DNA of 38,497 bases from Deltaproteobacteria bacterium. GTDB taxonomy: Bacteria > Desulfobacterota > Desulfobacteria > Desulfobacterales > JAFDFH01. The notes under the pieces are model-generated. The model was not told where the DNA came from, ran no database searches, and saw nothing but the letters and a program-made list of their open reading frames with translations. This document shows, piece by piece, positions 6,304-35,692 of this stretch; position 1 is the first letter of the stretch, and the number at the start of each line of letters is the position of its first letter. Location: the NCBI GenBank assembly GCA_019309945.1, contig JAFDFH010000051.1:1-38497 (forward strand), read 5' to 3'. Both the position numbers and the translations under genes were made by a program.

Positions 6304-6450
6304 CTAGTGTCCATCCAGAAATGAGGATTTTTGTTTAAGATCAAGGCCTGCGAAAAAAATAACCACAGGCATATGTTTGATATTCCGAGGATTATTTTTT
6401 GAGCATAACGCAGATCTTGGGCAAAAAGACCATTTATGGATGGGCACTAA
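6304..6450 (-). mobile_element. Family A foldback element, copy A1 (147 bp)
   Basis: Layout is CTAG-TGTCCATCCAGAAATGAGG ... CCATTTATGGATGGGCA-CTAA. Terminal inverted repeats flank a core that contains the hairpin GCCTGCG/CACAGGC. Confidence 0.8.
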
Positions 6451-6600
6451 CTATTCAACGAGGTCTGAAACTATCCATTACAGAATAGCAGCCATTACCA
6501 TTACAAAATATAAAAGACAAGTCTGAACGTCCAAAAGTAATACCTTGAAAATCAAATTCATGTATGATTAAAAAGAATGTTTTTAAACCGTCGGTTTTAA

Positions 6601-6747
6601 CTAGTGTCCGTCCAGAAACGAGGATTTTTGTTCGAGATCAAGGCATGCGAAAAATTTTACCGCAGGCATATAGTTGATATTCCGAGGATAAGATTTTGAG
6701 CATAACGCAGAAATCGGGCAAAAAGACCGTTTCTGGATGGGCACTAA
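6601..6747 (-). mobile_element. Family A foldback element, copy A2 (147 bp)
   Basis: Layout is CTAG-TGTCCGTCCAGAAACGAGG ... GACCGTTTCTGGATGGGCA-CTAA. It ends 21 nt before the cbiB ATG. Confidence 0.8.
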
Positions 6748-8852: not shown

Positions 8853-9123
8853 TATATTCCGTAGCCGTTCACGGGTTCAGGGTTCAAAGGTTCAGGGTTG
8901 CTTTTTTGTTTAAGCCTGATGGGATAAATGAGTTTCAGTGGGTCTCTCAATCGAATTATTCCGCCATTTTGCGTATGAATCAACCTGCTGTGCCATGAAT
9001 TTGCGTTTTCAACCCAAAGTCGCAACCAAAATTCAGGTTTGACGTATCAACAGTTGAGATTTGCATTGAACTTCGAACCTCTGAACCCTGAACCTTTGAA
9101 CCCGTGAACGGTTACTATATTCC
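8853..9123. mobile_element. Family C foldback element (255 bp, 8861-9115) with perfect 8-bp target duplication
   Basis: Termini are GTAGCCGTTCACGGGTTCAGGGTTCAAAGGTTCAGGGTT ... AACCTCTGAACCCTGAACCTTTGAACCCGTGAACGGTTAC. TATATTCC is present at 8853-8860 and again at 9116-9123. Confidence 0.8.
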
Positions 9124-11241: not shown

Positions 11242-11388
11242 CTAGTGCCCATCCAGAAACGGTCTTTTTGCCCGATCTCTGCGTTATGCTCAAAATTTTA
11301 TCCTCGGAATATCAACTATATGCCTGCGGTAAAATTTTTCGCAGCCCTTGATCTCGAACAAAAATCCTCGTTTCTGGACGGACACTAG
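11242..11388 (+). mobile_element. Family A foldback element, copy A3 (147 bp)
   Basis: CTAG-TGCCCATCCAGAAACGG ... CGTTTCTGGACGGACA-CTAG, so CTAG is present on both sides. It starts at the base immediately after the mrcA TAG stop. Confidence 0.85.
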
Positions 11389-11725: not shown

Positions 11726-11736
11726 TACCGTTTCCT

Positions 11737-12007
11737 GTAACTTCTCAAAAACTTATGGTTAAACATACCAGCGGAGTCATCCGGTAATTTTTTTCAAAGC
11801 GGGCAACTGTTTGAAGCCGTTTAGGGCGGCTTACAGTGATCCGAACATCATAAATTGTTGATTGTAGTCTGTTTGTGCTAAGCGACACACTCATTTTACA
11901 TCACGTACGCGGGTCACTGTTAGGCGCCCTTAACGGCAAGTTTTGGCCGTATTGAAAAAAATTACCGGATGGCGTAGCGGGTCTACCGGAACATATTGAG
12001 AAGTTAC
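11737..12007 (+). mobile_element. Family B foldback element, copy B1 (271 bp)
   Basis: GTAACTTCTCAA ... TTGAGAAGTTAC. The whole element is one long imperfect palindrome around a ~65-nt centre. The flanking 8-mers are CGTTTCCT and CTTTTCCT (7/8 match). Confidence 0.85.
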
Positions 12008-12081
12008 CTTTTCCTTTAGTAACTCACTGGTTTTGATCAAATTCTAACTTTTCCGGCTCGTCCGGGTGAGGAGGCCCAACA

Positions 12082-14935: not shown

Positions 14936-15205
14936 GCAACCTCTAAAAACTTATGGTTAAACCTACCAGCGGAGCCATCCGGTCATTTTTTTCAAAGCGG
15001 GCAACTGTTTGAAGCAGTTTAGGGCGGCTTACTGTGACCCGGACAGCATGAATTGTTAATTGTAGTCTGTTTGTGCTAAGCAACACGCTCATTTTACATT
15101 ACGTGCGCGGGTCACTGTTAGGCGCCCTTAACGGCAAGTTTTGGCCGTATTGAAAAAAATTACCGGATGGCGCAGCGGGCCTACCGAAACATATCGAGAA
15201 GTTAC
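14936..15205 (+). mobile_element. Family B foldback element, copy B2 (270 bp)
   Basis: GCAACCTCTAAAAAC ... ATCGAGAAGTTAC. The flanking 8-mers are TAAAAATG and CAAAAATG (7/8 match). Confidence 0.85.
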
Positions 15206-17261: not shown

Positions 17262-17516
17262 GTAATTTCTCAAAAACTTATGGTTCAACATACCAGCGGA
17301 GTCATCCGGTATTTTTTTTCAAAACGGGCAACTGTTTGAAGCCGTTTAGGGCGGCTTACAGAGACCCGAACAGCATAAATTGTTGATTGTAGTCTGTTTG
17401 TGCTAAGCGACAAACTCATTTTAGATCCCGTGCGCGGGGCACTGTTAGGCGCCCTTAACGGCAAGTTTTGGCCGTATTGAAAAAAATTAGCGGATGGCGC
17501 AGCGGGCCGGCCGGAT
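17262..17516 (+). mobile_element. Family B element, copy B3 (right terminus lost)
   Basis: GTAATTTCTCAAAAACTTATGG ... GGATGGCGCAGCGGGCC, after which homology decays just before the stop of the 334-aa gene at 17535. Confidence 0.8.
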
Positions 17517-17534
17517 GAATCGCAAGGGCAAGCG

Positions 17535-18539
17535 TTAGGCGATGAGTCCCAAAAGCGTATTTTTAAATTTTCTCTCAACCTTGTCCTTTTCCTGCTGAGA
17601 AAAGCCTGAATTCACGCATCGAGCAAAAAGTTCCCGGGGGGTCTCCCCTGGAATAATATAAATATTCAATGCGACCGTCCTTTCACCCGCCCAGCTATCG
17701 GGAAAGCTTTGAAAAGCTTCATCTACAACGGTCTCCTTATTTTTGACAAGCCTGACAAAGGCCTCCATTAGACCATCCTGCCACTTTTGGACACGTCCCG
17801 TTTTATTTTTCTGCACCGGCACGGCGTCCAGAGATAAAACCGTTTCGGCTCCTGTCGAGACATCGATTAAATATTCCAATACGGATCTACTGTTCGTTAT
17901 AAACACTCCCGACGCTTCTGCACCGAACTGACTCTGGTCATTTAAAAACAGACGGGCCCAGGCCTGTATCCGCTCTTTGGTCATATAATCCTTTGAATCA
18001 GAAATTTCCAGGGCCATTTCTCCTGCGGATTTGACCTGGGAATCCCCGCCCTCCCCTCTCAATCCATTGAGGAGATCTCGCTCCATTTTTTCAAGGGATA
18101 CAAGATCTTGATTGATTCCCCAATTTTCTACATCCAATTCCTGGGCGGTCTGAAGAAATATTCTGGCCAAAAAAAGAAAATCCGGTTTTCCCTGGGATTC
18201 TGATGCCCGCCTATTCTTTTTAACATCTTTCTTAATCTGTGATGCATAGGATTCATCAAAAAAAGGAACCTTATTCCCCTGGGCTTTTAAATAGGCGATC
18301 TCGCTCCCCTGGTGCTGGTCCAGCCAGATCCGGTAATCCCGGCAAATTGCGTCGATTTGATCTTCATCCCCGGTGGCCGGTACGCGGATGTCAAGCAACC
18401 CCTCTTTTTCCCATATTTGCATGCTTTCCGGCACGCTTTTACGGGAAGGCTGATACACCACGACCCGCCGGAAAAAAGCTCTCAGGGCCTCACCCGCCGG
18501 TTGGGATATAAAGGTAAAGGGGAAATATATGGGCTTCAT
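17535..18539 (-). CDS. Hypothetical protein, 334 aa, no recognisable motif
   Basis: A long ORF with coding-like composition. AAGGAT RBS, and only a 15-nt gap after the upstream fusion gene. Confidence 0.6.
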   Translation of the reverse strand: MKPIYFPFTFISQPAGEALRAFFRRVVVYQPSRKSVPESMQIWEKEGLLDIRVPATGDEDQIDAICRDYRIWLDQHQGSEIAYLKAQGNKVPFFDESYASQIKKDVKKNRRASESQGKPDFLFLARIFLQTAQELDVENWGINQDLVSLEKMERDLLNGLRGEGGDSQVKSAGEMALEISDSKDYMTKERIQAWARLFLNDQSQFGAEASGVFITNSRSVLEYLIDVSTGAETVLSLDAVPVQKNKTGRVQKWQDGLMEAFVRLVKNKETVVDEAFQSFPDSWAGERTVALNIYIIPGETPRELFARCVNSGFSQQEKDKVERKFKNTLLGLIA

Positions 18540-18554
18540 GTTTTATCCTTAACC

Positions 18555-20831
18555 CTAAATTTTCGGGTCCTTCAGGAGAACCCCATGGAACCTCAACTGT
18601 TCACGGATCTTATCCGCAAAATTCCAATTTTTCTCTTTTCGGGCCTGCTCGCGTTCTTCAATCAGGGCCTTAATCTCAGGATCCGACAATACGTCGCCAA
18701 AATCGAAAATTTTAAGCACAGAATCTAGATCACGATATGCATCTACTATCTTCATCGCTCCTTGCGCATCTATCCGTCTTTCCTGGATCAGGATGTTCAC
18801 CTGTTTGATCGTCTTAAATATCGAAGCCATCGCTGCGGATATGTTTAGATCGTCATCCATGGCGCTGATAAAACCCTGCTTGATATTATAAAGAAGCTGA
18901 TCCAGATCAGGGTAAAAATCGCCATCCTTTATTTTCAGCAAAGAATGGATGCATGCATCCAGCCTTTTCAAGGAACGTTTCAAACCCGCAAGCCGGTTAC
19001 TTGAAAATGTGACCGGTTTGCGGTAGTGGCTGGAGAGCAGCCAATGTCTAATTTCCCTGCCGGAATAATTCATGTCGATCAAATCCTGAAGGGTAAGACC
19101 CTCTCCTTTTTCATCCGTCTTTTTAGCATCTACGAGAACCTGGTCGCAATGGATCCAGTATCTGGCAAGCGCCTTTCCGGTCAGCGCTTTGGCGATTGCA
19201 TTCTCATTTTCATGATGGGGAAATACAAGCTCACGGCTGCTGGCATGAATATCAAACGTTTCTCCAAGAAACTTCATGGCCATGGCCACACATTGTATGT
19301 GCCATGAAGGACGTATATTGCCCCATTCCGTTTTAATATATATTCCCCGTTTTAATTCCGAAAGCCTTGATCGTTTTAACAATGTGAAATCCCGAGGATT
19401 GTCCTTTTCATAGGCATCCAGATCGACGGTGGCCCCGAGTCTTATCTTATCCATATCCATACCGGATAATCTGCCATAATCTGAACATCGCGAAATGTTA
19501 AAATAAAGCGAACGAAGCTTTTCGTAGGCGAATCCTTTTTTCACGAGTCCTTTCACCACCTGAATCATATCTTCAACATGTTCGCTCGCACGGGGATACC
19601 GGGTTGCCGGCTGGATACCCAGGAAGAAAAGATCCTGTTTGAATGACTCAATATGTTTTTGTGTGAAATCAGTGAGTTCAATCCCTTCTTGCTCCGAGCC
19701 GAGTATGGTCTTGTCGTCAAGGTCCGTGATATTCATGATGTGGGTTACAACATAGCCCCTGTATTCCAGATATCGATAAAGCAAATCGGTAAAAACAAAA
19801 CGGCGGCATTCCCCAAGGTGGATCCTCGCATGGGCGGTGGGACCGCATGAATACATGGACACCTTGCCCGGAAGGATTGGCTCAAATGGTTCCTTGGCCC
19901 GGCTCAAGCTATTGAATAATTTAAAATCAACCTTTTCGCGGACCGCAAACAGCTGTGTACTCAGGTAGCGTTCACCCCCGTCCGGAAATATGACAACAAT
20001 CGTCCCCTCAGTCATGGCGTCCGCTTCCTTGCAGGCAATCGCCATGGCGGCCCCGCTGCTCATCCCCACAAAAAGGCCTTCCTCCTTGGCAAGGCGCCTG
20101 GTCATCTCAAAGGCCTCTTCGTCATCAATGTTTACTTTTTTGTCAAGGCGTTTCTTTTCAAAAATTTCCGGACAATAGGCCTCCTTCATATTCTTTAATC
20201 CCTGGATTTTATGCCCCAGGTAAGGCTCAACCCCAACAATCACGATATCGGGATTATATTCTTTCAGTCTTTTCGAGCACCCCATGAGCGTACCGGTCGT
20301 GCCCATGGTAGCCAGCAGCATCGCAAGGTCTCCCCGGGTCTGTTCCCAGATCTCTTGTGCGGTTCCATAATAATGGGCCAGACAATTGGCTTCATTATTA
20401 TACTGATCGGCCATAAAATAGGATTCGGGATTCTCACGCGCCAGGCGATAGACTTCTTCAATAGCGCCATCGGTGCCCAAATGGCCCGGTGTGAGAAGAA
20501 TCTCGGCACCCCGGGCCTTCAGGATTTTCTGTCGTTCAACGCTCGCAGCCTCGGACATGGTTAACAGAAGTCGATAACCTTTGACGGCACAGACAAGGGC
20601 AAGTCCGATCCCGGTATTTCCACTGGTAGCCTCAATAACCGTTTTATTGGGGGTGAGTTCACCCGATTTTTCGCCGGCCTGGATCATGAAAAGGGCGGAC
20701 CTGTCCTTGATCGAGCCCCCGGGATTGAAATACTCCAGTTTTGCCAGCATTCTAACGCGCGGGTTCGGATTAAGCTTCTTGATTTCAACGAGTGGCGTAT
20801 GACCGATAGTTTCCAGAATAGACTTGCTCAT
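18555..20831 (-). CDS. Fusion protein: PLP-dependent cysteine synthase (CysK/CysM type) + cysteinyl-tRNA-synthetase-like body with degenerate HIGH/KMSKS
   Basis: N-terminal half: GGSIKDR, TSGNTG, GTTGT, SSGAA. C-terminal half: MYSCGPT..HLGE (HIGH position), NITDLDDK, WHIQC, DIHASS, FPHHENE, KKTDEK (KMSKS position), DDDLN, EEREQARKEKNW. I chose the start at ATG 20831, which overlaps the tmk stop as ATGA. The track's start at 20885 lies inside tmk. Confidence 0.8.
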   Translation of the reverse strand: MSKSILETIGHTPLVEIKKLNPNPRVRMLAKLEYFNPGGSIKDRSALFMIQAGEKSGELTPNKTVIEATSGNTGIGLALVCAVKGYRLLLTMSEAASVERQKILKARGAEILLTPGHLGTDGAIEEVYRLARENPESYFMADQYNNEANCLAHYYGTAQEIWEQTRGDLAMLLATMGTTGTLMGCSKRLKEYNPDIVIVGVEPYLGHKIQGLKNMKEAYCPEIFEKKRLDKKVNIDDEEAFEMTRRLAKEEGLFVGMSSGAAMAIACKEADAMTEGTIVVIFPDGGERYLSTQLFAVREKVDFKLFNSLSRAKEPFEPILPGKVSMYSCGPTAHARIHLGECRRFVFTDLLYRYLEYRGYVVTHIMNITDLDDKTILGSEQEGIELTDFTQKHIESFKQDLFFLGIQPATRYPRASEHVEDMIQVVKGLVKKGFAYEKLRSLYFNISRCSDYGRLSGMDMDKIRLGATVDLDAYEKDNPRDFTLLKRSRLSELKRGIYIKTEWGNIRPSWHIQCVAMAMKFLGETFDIHASSRELVFPHHENENAIAKALTGKALARYWIHCDQVLVDAKKTDEKGEGLTLQDLIDMNYSGREIRHWLLSSHYRKPVTFSSNRLAGLKRSLKRLDACIHSLLKIKDGDFYPDLDQLLYNIKQGFISAMDDDLNISAAMASIFKTIKQVNILIQERRIDAQGAMKIVDAYRDLDSVLKIFDFGDVLSDPEIKALIEEREQARKEKNWNFADKIREQLRFHGVLLKDPKI

Positions 20832-21475
20832 TCTTTCAATCCCAAGCCGTTGTTCAAACATAAAAGGTTGATGATCTCCTCGCAAACCTGTGTTTCATCC
20901 TTCGATGCATCGACAATGCGAAACCGTGCAGGTTCAAGACGGGCAAGCTCAAGGTAGCCTTCCCTTACCCTTTGGTGAAATGCGAACGCCTCCTTTTCAA
21001 AACGGGTTTCAAATCCCGCCCTTTTGCCGCTTTCGATCTGTTTCCAGGCCCTTGCAAGCCCTACTTCAGGGGCAAGGTCAAGAAGAATGGTCATATCAGG
21101 CTTTAGGTCATCAAGAATCAATTTGTGCAACGTGTTGATGAGTTTGACATCGATGCCTCTTGCAAATCCCTGGTACACGACCGTAGCGTCAAAATACCGG
21201 TCGCATAAAACAATCTTTCCGGATGATAAAGACGGGATCACCAATTTTTTAACATGCTGGACCCGGTCAGCCTTGTAGAGCAGCAGTTCGGTCATCGGAT
21301 CCATGTCTTTACTCTGAGGATCAAGCAAAATCGCCCGAACTTTCTCCCCGATTCTCGTACCCCCGGGCTCCCGGGTGATCAAGCAGTCTCTCCCCCGACT
21401 TCGCAGAAATTCAGCGATGTTTTGAATCTGAGTTGTCTTACCGGAGCCCTCTATGCCTTCAAATGTAATGAACAT
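20828..21475 (-). CDS. tmk: Thymidylate kinase
   Basis: MFITFEGIEGSGKTTQ P-loop, a DRY motif (CDRYFDAT), and the typical length. Confidence 0.9.
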   Translation of the reverse strand: MFITFEGIEGSGKTTQIQNIAEFLRSRGRDCLITREPGGTRIGEKVRAILLDPQSKDMDPMTELLLYKADRVQHVKKLVIPSLSSGKIVLCDRYFDATVVYQGFARGIDVKLINTLHKLILDDLKPDMTILLDLAPEVGLARAWKQIESGKRAGFETRFEKEAFAFHQRVREGYLELARLEPARFRIVDASKDETQVCEEIINLLCLNNGLGLKE

Positions 21476-23366: not shown

Positions 23367-23399
23367 TCAATGTGTGAAAAAACCATATTATCATTTTAT
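23367..23399 (+). repeat. 33-bp direct repeat, left copy, abutting B4
   Basis: TCAATGTGTGAAAAAACCATATTATCATTTTAT. It matches 23671-23703 at 31 of 33 positions. Confidence 0.85.
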
Positions 23400-23670
23400 G
23401 TAACTTCTCAAAAACTTATGGTTATACCTACCCGCGGAGTCATCCGGTAATTTTTTTCAAAGCGGGCAACTGTTTGAAGCCGTTTAGGGCGGCTTATATA
23501 GACCCGAACAGCAAAAATTGTTAATTGTACCCTGTTTGTGCTAAGCGATACACTTATTTTAGATCCCGTGCGCGGGTCTATGTTAGGCGCCCTTAACGGC
23601 AAGTTTTGGCCGTATTGAAAAAAATTAGCGGATGGCGCAGCGGGCCTACCGGAACATATTTAGAAGTTAC
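23400..23670 (+). mobile_element. Family B foldback element, copy B4 (271 bp)
   Basis: GTAACTTCTCAAAAAC ... ATTTAGAAGTTAC. It carries paired arm substitutions (TATAGACCC / GGGTCTATG) relative to the other copies. Confidence 0.85.
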
Positions 23671-23703
23671 TCAATGTGTGAAAAAACCGTATTACCATTT
23701 TAT
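23671..23703 (+). repeat. 33-bp direct repeat, right copy
   Basis: TCAATGTGTGAAAAAACCGTATTACCATTTTAT, immediately after the B4 right terminus. Confidence 0.85.
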
Positions 23704-28547: not shown

Positions 28548-28588
28548 AAATGCCTAAAATGCCTAAAATGCGCTAAAGTGCCTAAAAT
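28548..28588 (+). repeat. Tandem 9-10-nt repeat (AAATGCCTA type), about 4.5 units
   Basis: AAATGCCTA AAATGCCTA AAATGCGCT AAAGTGCCTA AAATT. Confidence 0.8.
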
Positions 28589-28591
28589 TAA

Positions 28592-28632
28592 GGATGGCGC
28601 AGCGGGCCTTACGGAACATATTGAGAAGTTAT
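28592..28632 (+). repeat. Solo right terminus of family B (B5)
   Basis: GGATGGCGCAGCGGGCCTTACGGAACATATTGAGAAGTTAT matches the last ~41 nt of B1, B2 and B4. Confidence 0.75.
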
Positions 28633-34151: not shown

Positions 34152-35513
34152 GTGCTGAAAAGGAATGCGGCCCAAAAAAGGATATTCAAAAACGCCCTGA
34201 AATACATCATCCTGCCTGTCATTTTACTTTTTGCGGTTTACGAATTAATCCAAGGGATAGGTGGGCTTGCTGCCGACCAGATGGAGGCAGCTAAAACCGT
34301 TTTATCAGAAGATAAAGCCGACACGTCCGATCATTCTGAACCGTTAATCTCAAAACGGGAGGTTCAATCTTTACTCGATAACAACGTTTTTATTAATCTT
34401 CAGGCTAACCATTTCGATTTTATTCACGATGGCCAAAACTTTCAGGTCGACACCTCCATTGATATTCCCCTGCAACAGTTTATATTAAAAAAGATGGATC
34501 GTGCCAATTCCCGACGTATTGGCGTTGTGGTATTGGAACCGCTGACAGGTAAGGTTTTGGCAATGGCGGGTTTTGATAAGACAAATCCATCCAATAACCC
34601 GTGTTTAGACAATCGCTTTCCCGCCGCAAGCATATTTAAAATTATAACCGCAGCGGCCGCTATCGAGAAGTGCGGTTTTGACCCCAATACAACGCTTAAG
34701 TTTAACGGGGGGAAATATACCCTATATAAATCTCAGCTTAGAGAAAGAACAAATAAATATACCGCCAGGATTACGCTTCAGGACTCATTCGCCCAGTCTG
34801 TTAACCCTGTGTTTGGAAAAATCGGTTCGCTCTATCTTAAAAAATCCGCTCTCCAGACATATGCTTCGGCTTTCGGTTTTAACCAGGATATTGATTTTGA
34901 GCTCCCCCTATCCCCCAGTTTTATCAAATTAACGGACGAGCCGTATCATTGGGCGGAAATTGCCAGTGGTTTCAACCGGGAAACCTTGTTGTCGCCCATG
35001 CACGGCGCACTCATCAGTTCCGCTATATTGAATTCAGGCAAACTGGTCGAACCGACCGTCGTTGATCAGGTTACGGATGCAAACGGTCAGGCGATTTACC
35101 AAAGCCGTTTGACCCCCATTCAGCAGGCCTGCAAAAAAAACACATCGATTGCCGTAAAAAAATTAATGAATGCATCGATTCGTTCCGGAACCTGCCGCAA
35201 AGCCTTCAGGGGTTACCGCAAAGATCCGGTTCTCTCCAGGTTGAATATTGGCGGTAAATCCGGTTCGATTTATAATAGATCGCATGATACGCGCTTTGAC
35301 TGGTTTGTCGGATTTGCCGAGGAAAAAGAAGGTTACGAAAAGATTGCCGTCTCCGTTGTCATTGCCCATGGGAAATATATCGGTAAACGCGCTACCCGAT
35401 ATGGGCGCATCCTGATAAAACAATACTTTGGCAATTATTTTGCGAATAAAAAGAGAACCATAAAAAAAGATTTTTTGATCGCTGGACACAAATTACCAAT
35501 AGTAAATCAGTAG
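34152..35513 (+). CDS. Membrane-anchored penicillin-binding transpeptidase (monofunctional, class B-like)
   Basis: N-terminal TM helix, SIFK (SxxK), SVN (SxN), KSG (KTG variant). The start is GTG. Confidence 0.7.
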   Translation: MLKRNAAQKRIFKNALKYIILPVILLFAVYELIQGIGGLAADQMEAAKTVLSEDKADTSDHSEPLISKREVQSLLDNNVFINLQANHFDFIHDGQNFQVDTSIDIPLQQFILKKMDRANSRRIGVVVLEPLTGKVLAMAGFDKTNPSNNPCLDNRFPAASIFKIITAAAAIEKCGFDPNTTLKFNGGKYTLYKSQLRERTNKYTARITLQDSFAQSVNPVFGKIGSLYLKKSALQTYASAFGFNQDIDFELPLSPSFIKLTDEPYHWAEIASGFNRETLLSPMHGALISSAILNSGKLVEPTVVDQVTDANGQAIYQSRLTPIQQACKKNTSIAVKKLMNASIRSGTCRKAFRGYRKDPVLSRLNIGGKSGSIYNRSHDTRFDWFVGFAEEKEGYEKIAVSVVIAHGKYIGKRATRYGRILIKQYFGNYFANKKRTIKKDFLIAGHKLPIVNQ

Positions 35514-35692
35514 TAACTACTCAGGTGGATAGGCTGAAGGCTGAAGACTGTTAGGAAAAAGCGCAATTTAAAGCCATGTTTGATGCAAGAATCAGATATT
35601 TCCGCCAAAGTACGGTAATCGTGCTTTTCTGACTCCTTCAGCCTTCAGTCTAAACAGCTTCAGCCTGACTACGTGAGTAGTTACAATCAGTA
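35505..35692. mobile_element. Family D foldback element (172 bp, 35513-35684) with perfect 8-bp target duplication
   Basis: GTAACTACTCAGGTGGATAGGCTGAAGGCTGAAG ... CTTCAGCCTTCAG..CTTCAGCCTGACTACGTGAGTAGTTAC. AATCAGTA is present at 35505-35512 and again at 35685-35692. Confidence 0.85.

Follow-up and report, generated by a model that had tools for sequence, protein, structure and literature searches.

We suggest that the foldback repeats designated here as family B are, taken as a whole, very probably best explained as an IS66-type MITE that carries a genome-wide strand bias. The identity of family B as a non-autonomous IS66-family MITE of the single-ORF, ISBst12-like group is secure, and a bias of approximately 75-85% in its full-length copies is well supported. 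What sets this bias is a matter for more tentative proposals, which we discuss after the evidence on copies, termini, structure and orientation.

Copies of family B in the window

The window, by which we mean the whole 38,497-nt stretch of DNA analyzed here, is contig C509 of a 3.6-Mb, 557-contig MAG of an uncultured bacterium of sulfate-reducer type, which is 95% complete and 8.7% contaminated. An earlier note on this DNA had claimed five family B copies, all in the + orientation, and this is indeed what the window contains: four copies that are full or nearly so, and a solo right end. Copy B1 (11737..12007, +) is full length at 271 bp, with termini GTAACTTCTCAA and TTGAGAAGTTAC, and lies between the halves of an 8-bp target-site duplication that match at seven of eight positions (left CGTTTCCT, 11729..11736; right CTTTTCCT, 12008-12015). 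Copy B2 (14936..15205, +), likewise full length, has a degenerate left terminus (GCAACCTCTAAAAAC) and a target duplication with the same 7/8 match (AAAAAATG / CAAAAATG), while copy B3 (17262..~17516, +) has lost about 20 nt of its right terminus. Copy B4 (23400..23670, +) is full length and bears a mirrored TATAG / CTATG variant; it lacks an 8-bp duplication and is exactly flanked by a 33-bp direct repeat (left 23367..23399; right 23671-23703; 31/33 match). Bracketing repeats longer than 8 bp occur in just two of 104 copies, B4 and a copy around position 5191 of contig C539 (21 bp), and both brackets may stem from aberrant staggered cuts or a template-switch event. The solo right end (~28584..28632, +) retains 40-49 nt, equivalent to element positions ~222-271. 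Directly before it, at 28553-28591, is a short run of imperfect repeats of about 9 nt, variants of AAATGCCTA.

The copies were also said to lack coding capacity, and we detect no ORF of at least 100 aa in the census copies once the repeat is removed. The ORF at 17285-17578 lies almost entirely within B3, and lptD is listed with a TTG start at 23606, which falls inside B4 and is probably not the true one; ORF calls that begin within family B copies, this one among them, are not trustworthy. The proposed link of right ends to envelope genes fared less well: it is true in the window but at chance level genome-wide, where the 5' end of a gene is faced in 91 of 194 cases (47%).

Between B3 and B4, on the - strand, the window encodes a 776-aa protein (18555-20885) in which a complete cysteinyl-tRNA synthetase is joined to a PLP-dependent domain (PALP, CysK-like). 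This CysK-CysS fusion is present in at least 80 genomes at 48-78% identity, mostly from the Desulfobacterales, with a few matches in the Syntrophobacterales and Bradymonadales at about 50%. It assigns the MAG to the Desulfobacterales, its best amino-acid identity to any genome searched being 77-78%.

Genome-wide census and insertion signature

Searches of the MAG with blastn recovered 293 unmerged family B loci, 121 of them spanning at least 250 nt, with a median identity to B1 of 93%. After merging, the family comprises 276 loci and 49.8 kb, or 1.4% of the assembly, with approximately 108-121 copies counted as full length according to the criterion applied. A few copies are embedded in larger repeats and do not count as independent insertion events. 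When the 243 loci of at least 60 aligned nt were compared with ORF-based gene calls, none of these loci lay inside a gene.

The signature of transposition is clear. An 8-bp duplication with at most one mismatch flanks 65 of the 104 full copies with usable flanks, as against 0/104 at a control offset, and the target consensus is AT-rich and palindromic. The termini (GTAAC...GTTAC) are conserved over the 104 copies, and the terminal inverted repeats are perfect for 12 bp. Internal-deletion derivatives of 161 nt (five copies), 77 nt (eight) and 62 nt (three) occupy separate sites with their own duplications, and a longer variant of 279 nt (seven copies) carries 8 nt more than the standard element. 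The initial reading of family B as a non-coding foldback mobile element is supported.

Copies differ from the consensus by approximately 4.7-5%, and the two halves of the target duplications have decayed about as far, which indicates that most of the divergence arose after insertion. Family B looks like an old burst. It also looks inactive in this MAG, given the lack of an assembled partner transposase, the divergence of about 5% and the decayed duplications. The repeats are often found at contig ends and therefore probably contribute to the fragmentation of the MAG. One further copy, 96.7% identical to the consensus, lies at 6375-6645 of a metagenome contig (Ga0255368_10374, locus L159), with no transposase found near it; since the non-repeat DNA of that contig has no match in this MAG, the copy would represent either family B in another organism or an unassembled region.

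Assignment to the IS66 family

In ISfinder, the signature of IS66 is the combination of GTAA termini with an 8-bp target duplication. The inverted repeats of IS66 start with GTAA (PMC12888890, PMC12898284), and ISDge4 of Deinococcus geothermalis, a member of the ISBst12 group, combines one ORF with the inverted repeats GTAACTGCTCAGCA and an 8-bp repeat (PMC12898284). Family B shares with ISDge4 both the GTAACT.CTCA start and the length of the duplication.

The earlier note had proposed a search for a full-length IS with GTAAC termini, and such elements, of the IS66 family, exist in related genomes. Among the Desulfobacterales genomes we looked for end pairs 1.8-1.9 kb apart and examined four loci. 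L149 (1906 bp) has perfect 23-nt inverted repeats and one 533-aa ORF, which matches PF03050 (E = 1.7e-18) and NF033517 (E = 1e-34), the latter at 120 bits against a curated NCBIfam cut-off of 180. L150 (1841 bp) and L152 (1916 bp) are flanked by perfect 8-bp duplications (ATTTTTTT and TCAAAAGA, respectively), and in L151 (1781 bp) the transposase gene is broken. All four, in other genomes of the order, share the inverted repeats of family B. The GTAAC termini, the 8-bp duplication and the matching DDE-type ISs together identify family B as an IS66/ISBst12-type MITE.

The terminus motif GTAACTTCTCAAWAWNTTNNGG, allowing one mismatch, was found in 59 of 201 sampled Desulfobacterales genomes, the reversed-pattern control giving approximately zero. 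Four other fragmented Desulfobacterales MAGs (G022, G080, G103 and G150) each contain 93-158 occurrences of the motif GTAACTTCTCAA(W)A(W). The IS/MITE group with these termini is thus widespread in the Desulfobacterales and sometimes massively amplified.

Family B and the ISs have only their 12-23 terminal nucleotides in common; when the left and right ends of the MITE were matched to IS ends, the similarity stopped there. The ISs of related genomes are 1.8-1.9 kb long with a single ORF encoding a PF03050 DDE domain, whereas family B has no gene and has arms of about 105 nt that constitute an internal inverted duplication absent from the ISs. Like other bacterial MITEs (Correia/NEMIS, ERIC and the unrelated family A of this genome), family B is short, non-coding and intergenic, with terminal inverted repeats, target duplications, a high copy number and deletion derivatives. 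It differs from bacterial MITEs generally in its 8-bp, IS66-type duplication and in a strong strand bias that is missing from family A.

This MAG yielded no match to PF03050, and neither tblastn nor a genome search with the L149 protein produced one. Multi-copy ISs often drop out of assemblies, and the MAG is 95% complete; the missing transposase hence does not show absence. Several candidates for a partner were set aside. Orphan ends in this MAG were considered as traces of full ISs, and the search at two mismatches was too noisy to provide a candidate; end pairs 1137 and 4738 bp apart in this MAG lack matching duplications; and a 2628-bp IS66-family element (locus L035; G022:C182, 2-2629), which encodes a 517-aa PF03050 transposase, has different inverted repeats (GTAAATATTCGGTTT). 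A search for the exact family B terminus among genome contigs returned no match.

Other short elements carry related ends. A separate MITE family of 71-81 nt has family B termini (GTAACATCTCAATAAGTTCTG...), an unrelated interior and its own 8-bp duplications, with copies at C275:657-727 and C222:5686-5766 in this MAG and at locus L034 in G022; from these shared termini, one transposase type seems to have moved several families. Two families in the window are IS66-type MITEs of other subgroups: family D (35513-35684), whose termini (GTAACTACTCAG) resemble those of ISDge4, and family C (8861-9115), whose termini (GTAGCCGTTCACGG) resemble the classical IS66 ends (GTAACCGTCCGG).

The mobilization of family B by an IS66-type enzyme is something that we infer from the termini. 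Under the history that we propose, a DDE transposase acting in trans would have recognized the terminal ~12-23 bp and inserted the element into AT-rich intergenic sites, generating the 8-bp target duplication. The termini alone would derive from the IS, the arms having arisen as an internal inverted duplication, and family B, together with its 161-, 77- and 62-nt derivatives, would have spread in this way to its roughly 276 loci.

Hairpin structure and mirrored substitutions

Folded as RNA, the + strand of B1 reaches -119.6 kcal/mol (z = -11.7) and the - strand -106.5 kcal/mol (z = -10.6), with none of 200 shuffles as good in either case; as single-stranded DNA, the corresponding values are -73.3 and -61.5 kcal/mol. 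The copies had been described as near-perfect palindromes. The long hairpin stands, but the description as near-perfect does not, since the arms, of about 105 nt each, agree in 79 of the ~105 positions that align and are interrupted by two indel loops. Pairing is perfect in the 12-nt termini and in a 22-nt core of B1, and the asymmetric centre between the arms measures ~65-69 nt.

The mirrored change reported in B4 is real: CAGTG has become TATAG on the left arm and CACTG has become CTATG on the right arm, which amounts to two compensated pairs, plus a G:T produced by a C-to-T change. The 75 outer-helix pairs, compared over 104 copies, contain 46 compensated cells, as against 13.7 +/- 3.0 in column permutations, none of 300 of which reaches 46. 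Both members of a pair are changed together 48 times when the true partner is used, and 3-25 times when the partner is slid by one to four columns. The suggestion that pairing is preserved therefore holds insofar as the mirrored changes, whose excess is modest, surpass both the permutation and the slid-partner controls; the RNA hairpin offered as its cause is not favored. About five sites (50/227, 82/199, 100-101/180-181 and 103/178) account for the signal; each also shows mismatched intermediates at appreciable frequency, and the sites are largely subfamily markers. Private compensated pairs number three, where 0.8 doubles of any kind are expected. The mirrored substitutions may reflect either a handful of changes that arose in master copies as these propagated, or occasional arm-to-arm correction; they are not strong evidence for an RNA role.

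We regard it as distinctly improbable that family B is a structured RNA, that is, a co-transcribed hairpin under selection that controls mRNA processing, stability or termination in the manner of Correia or ERIC elements. The predicted fold is very stable, and better on the + than on the - strand; mirrored substitutions are in excess; G:T slightly outnumbers A:C on the + strand (197 vs 159, p = 0.05), a marginal difference; and many copies abut stop codons, with 47 of 103 right ends lying within 30 nt of one. All of these would suit a transcribed hairpin. Against them, the target duplications and IS termini point to spread by transposition, changes on the arms are mostly uncompensated (695 unpaired cells vs 51 compensated), and the orientation of the copies tracks strand composition and not gene direction. 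Between co-directional genes, moreover, copies are antisense in 61 cases and sense in 34, so that neighboring transcripts would mostly carry the weaker strand. No part of the window matched Rfam 15 at gathering thresholds, and a scan of copy B1 for sigma-70-like promoter and intrinsic-terminator patterns detected neither.

Genome-wide orientation of family B

Of 77 pairs of adjacent copies on one contig, 56 agree in orientation (p = 8e-5), and contig C284 carries eight copies out of eight in one orientation; when orientation is called more strictly and neighbors must be over 300 bp apart, concordant pairs outnumber discordant ones by 48 to 17. We related this orientation to replication through GC3 skew on the short contigs of a fragmented MAG, so that polarity is inferred rather than mapped. 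Of 104 full-length copies, 76 have their + strand on the strand that is C-rich by GC3, presumed to be the lagging one, and 28 on the other (p = 3e-6). A gene-level polarity model, in which a coding-strand effect (mu = -0.025) is separated from a strand effect (delta = 0.056) and polarity is assigned per contig, places all copies 158 vs 73 in favor of the C-rich strand, and 46 vs 8 on contigs of confident polarity. The bias persists when polarity is taken from co-oriented genes only (119 vs 47) or from anti-oriented genes only (117 vs 63), it is seen in every flanking-gene configuration, and it is present among copies with no stop codon abutting them (63 vs 22).

The skew has a genuine strand component, since the strand-referenced GC3 excess of neighboring genes of opposite orientation is positively correlated (r = 0.10, p = 0.014). 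The leading strand is usually the G-rich one, and the G-rich coding strand of the ribosomal-protein and rpoBC contigs fits this assignment. In the window itself the + strand is C-rich (GC3 skew -0.08), and the four + copies comply despite changes in the direction of the flanking genes; their common orientation is a local sample of the genome-wide strand bias.

Family A, an unrelated 147-nt foldback MITE with 234 oriented loci (window copy at 11242-11388), served as a control in the same pipeline and presented no bias, either between neighbors (32 vs 30) or by strand (110 vs 124 and 31 vs 35). Family D is equally unbiased (24 vs 20); it was considered for a further test of the family B transposase and set aside, its termini being those of another subgroup. 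G022 contains just two copies related to family B.

Orientation tested genome-wide against strand composition is thus non-random and compensatory changes are in excess, whereas random orientation with no such excess was what the earlier note held would leave an ordinary decaying MITE. We consider it unlikely that family B is only that, with its orientation and mirrored changes produced by subfamily structure, local hopping, gene-strand clustering or noise in the inferred polarity. Such an element would be expected to look much as family B does in several respects: divergence is fairly even (termini 3.9%, arms 4.2%, centre 6.4%), the few compensated sites behave largely as subfamily markers with mismatched intermediates, polarity is drawn from the GC3 skew of short contigs, and a test allowing one vote per contig, on contigs of at least 15 kb, gives 12 vs 10. 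Yet family A, in the same pipeline, displays neither neighbor concordance nor an association with skew, and the family B effect rises with confidence in polarity and is present with polarity from either gene orientation class. The flanking-gene association (61%) would, in addition, predict a neighbor concordance of about 51%, whereas 73% is observed.

What may set the strand bias

The bias depends on the form of the copy. Full-length copies are placed 83 on the C-rich and 25 on the G-rich strand, and solo left remnants 30 and 9; the corresponding counts are 32 and 27 for solo right remnants and 9 and 8 for both-end deletion derivatives. An independent end-pair call gives 71 vs 22 for complete full-length copies and 8 vs 13 for short derivatives (Fisher p = 0.0012).

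Most full-length copies are oriented so that their weaker-folding strand coincides with the G-rich strand, presumed to be the lagging-strand template and hence single-stranded during replication. Two routes to the bias would fit this direction. The transposition complex might insert the element in a set orientation at replication forks. Alternatively, the orientation that exposes the stronger hairpin on the lagging-strand template might be lost preferentially, either through slippage between the 8-bp repeats or excision, or because it is harmful to the cell. The short derivatives share these termini and show no bias, which argues against a purely terminus-driven oriented insertion. Orientation-dependent loss, for its part, gains no positive support from the minority-orientation copies, which were compared with the majority in divergence, hairpin energy and duplication decay and showed no difference, being no older, no weaker in folding and no more decayed. 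Solo remnants split, left ends being biased and right ends not. Neither oriented insertion nor orientation-dependent loss accounts for all the observations.

The hairpins of family A are also unequal on the two strands (-26 vs -33 kcal/mol); they are far weaker than those of family B, and family A is unbiased. A polar oligomer was examined as a cause of the strand bias and discarded, since among KOPS-like 7- and 8-mers none is strongly skewed; of the weakly skewed words, the element has a single occurrence of ACAGTTG (72%), on its - strand.

A strand bias associated with hairpins could also suggest a single-strand element of the HUH/Y1 type, similar to IS200/IS605 or REP elements, whose bias would arise through hairpins in the single-stranded DNA of the lagging strand. 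IS200/IS605 and REP-type elements are not known to duplicate their target or to possess terminal inverted repeats, and their hairpins are subterminal. Family B resembles IS200/IS605 and REP/BIME elements in its strong strand bias and its hairpin-forming sequence, it forms a long hairpin, and its bias is found only in full-length foldback copies and is as strong as that reported for IS200 (PMC3971601). It has, however, the target duplications and terminal inverted repeats that those elements lack; 8-bp duplications are the rule in family B, and its termini are the inverted repeats of DDE ISs of the IS66 type, which themselves generate 8-bp duplications. We hence consider a single-strand origin very improbable.

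The orientation of ISs has been correlated with local GC skew (Gomez et al., 2014, PMC3971601), and the beta sliding clamp is bound by peptides of IS66 TnpB and TnpC (PMC3971601). In the same survey, IS66a presents a weak tendency toward the leading strand (p = 0.09) and IS66b none in the Proteobacteria, where only IS91, IS110 and IS200 are strongly biased (PMC3971601). That survey deals with transposase genes and not with MITEs, whereas the 75-85% bias of family B concerns a gene-less element and is missing from its short derivatives.

We tentatively propose, as a possibility to which we give somewhat less than even chances, that the long asymmetric hairpin of family B sets its orientation with respect to replication, either through oriented capture or insertion of the foldback form at the fork by the IS66-type transposition complex, or through preferential removal of the orientation that exposes the stronger hairpin.

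Implications

MITEs are common, and family B can now be assigned to the IS66/ISBst12 group. Less ordinary is a strand bias of 75-85% in a gene-less element with terminal inverted repeats and target duplications, a bias missing both from the short derivatives of family B and from the unrelated family A of the same genome. If the hairpin does set orientation, the direction of the fork would be recorded within a gene-less, DDE-type MITE itself, whose orientation bias would be set in cis by its structure, and not by a transposase gene or by transcription. Should a closed chromosome agree, the orientation bias would be separated from selection on transposase expression and tied to the internal hairpin of family B, and the family would provide a natural system in which to study DDE transposition, or the stability of long hairpins, in relation to the replication fork.
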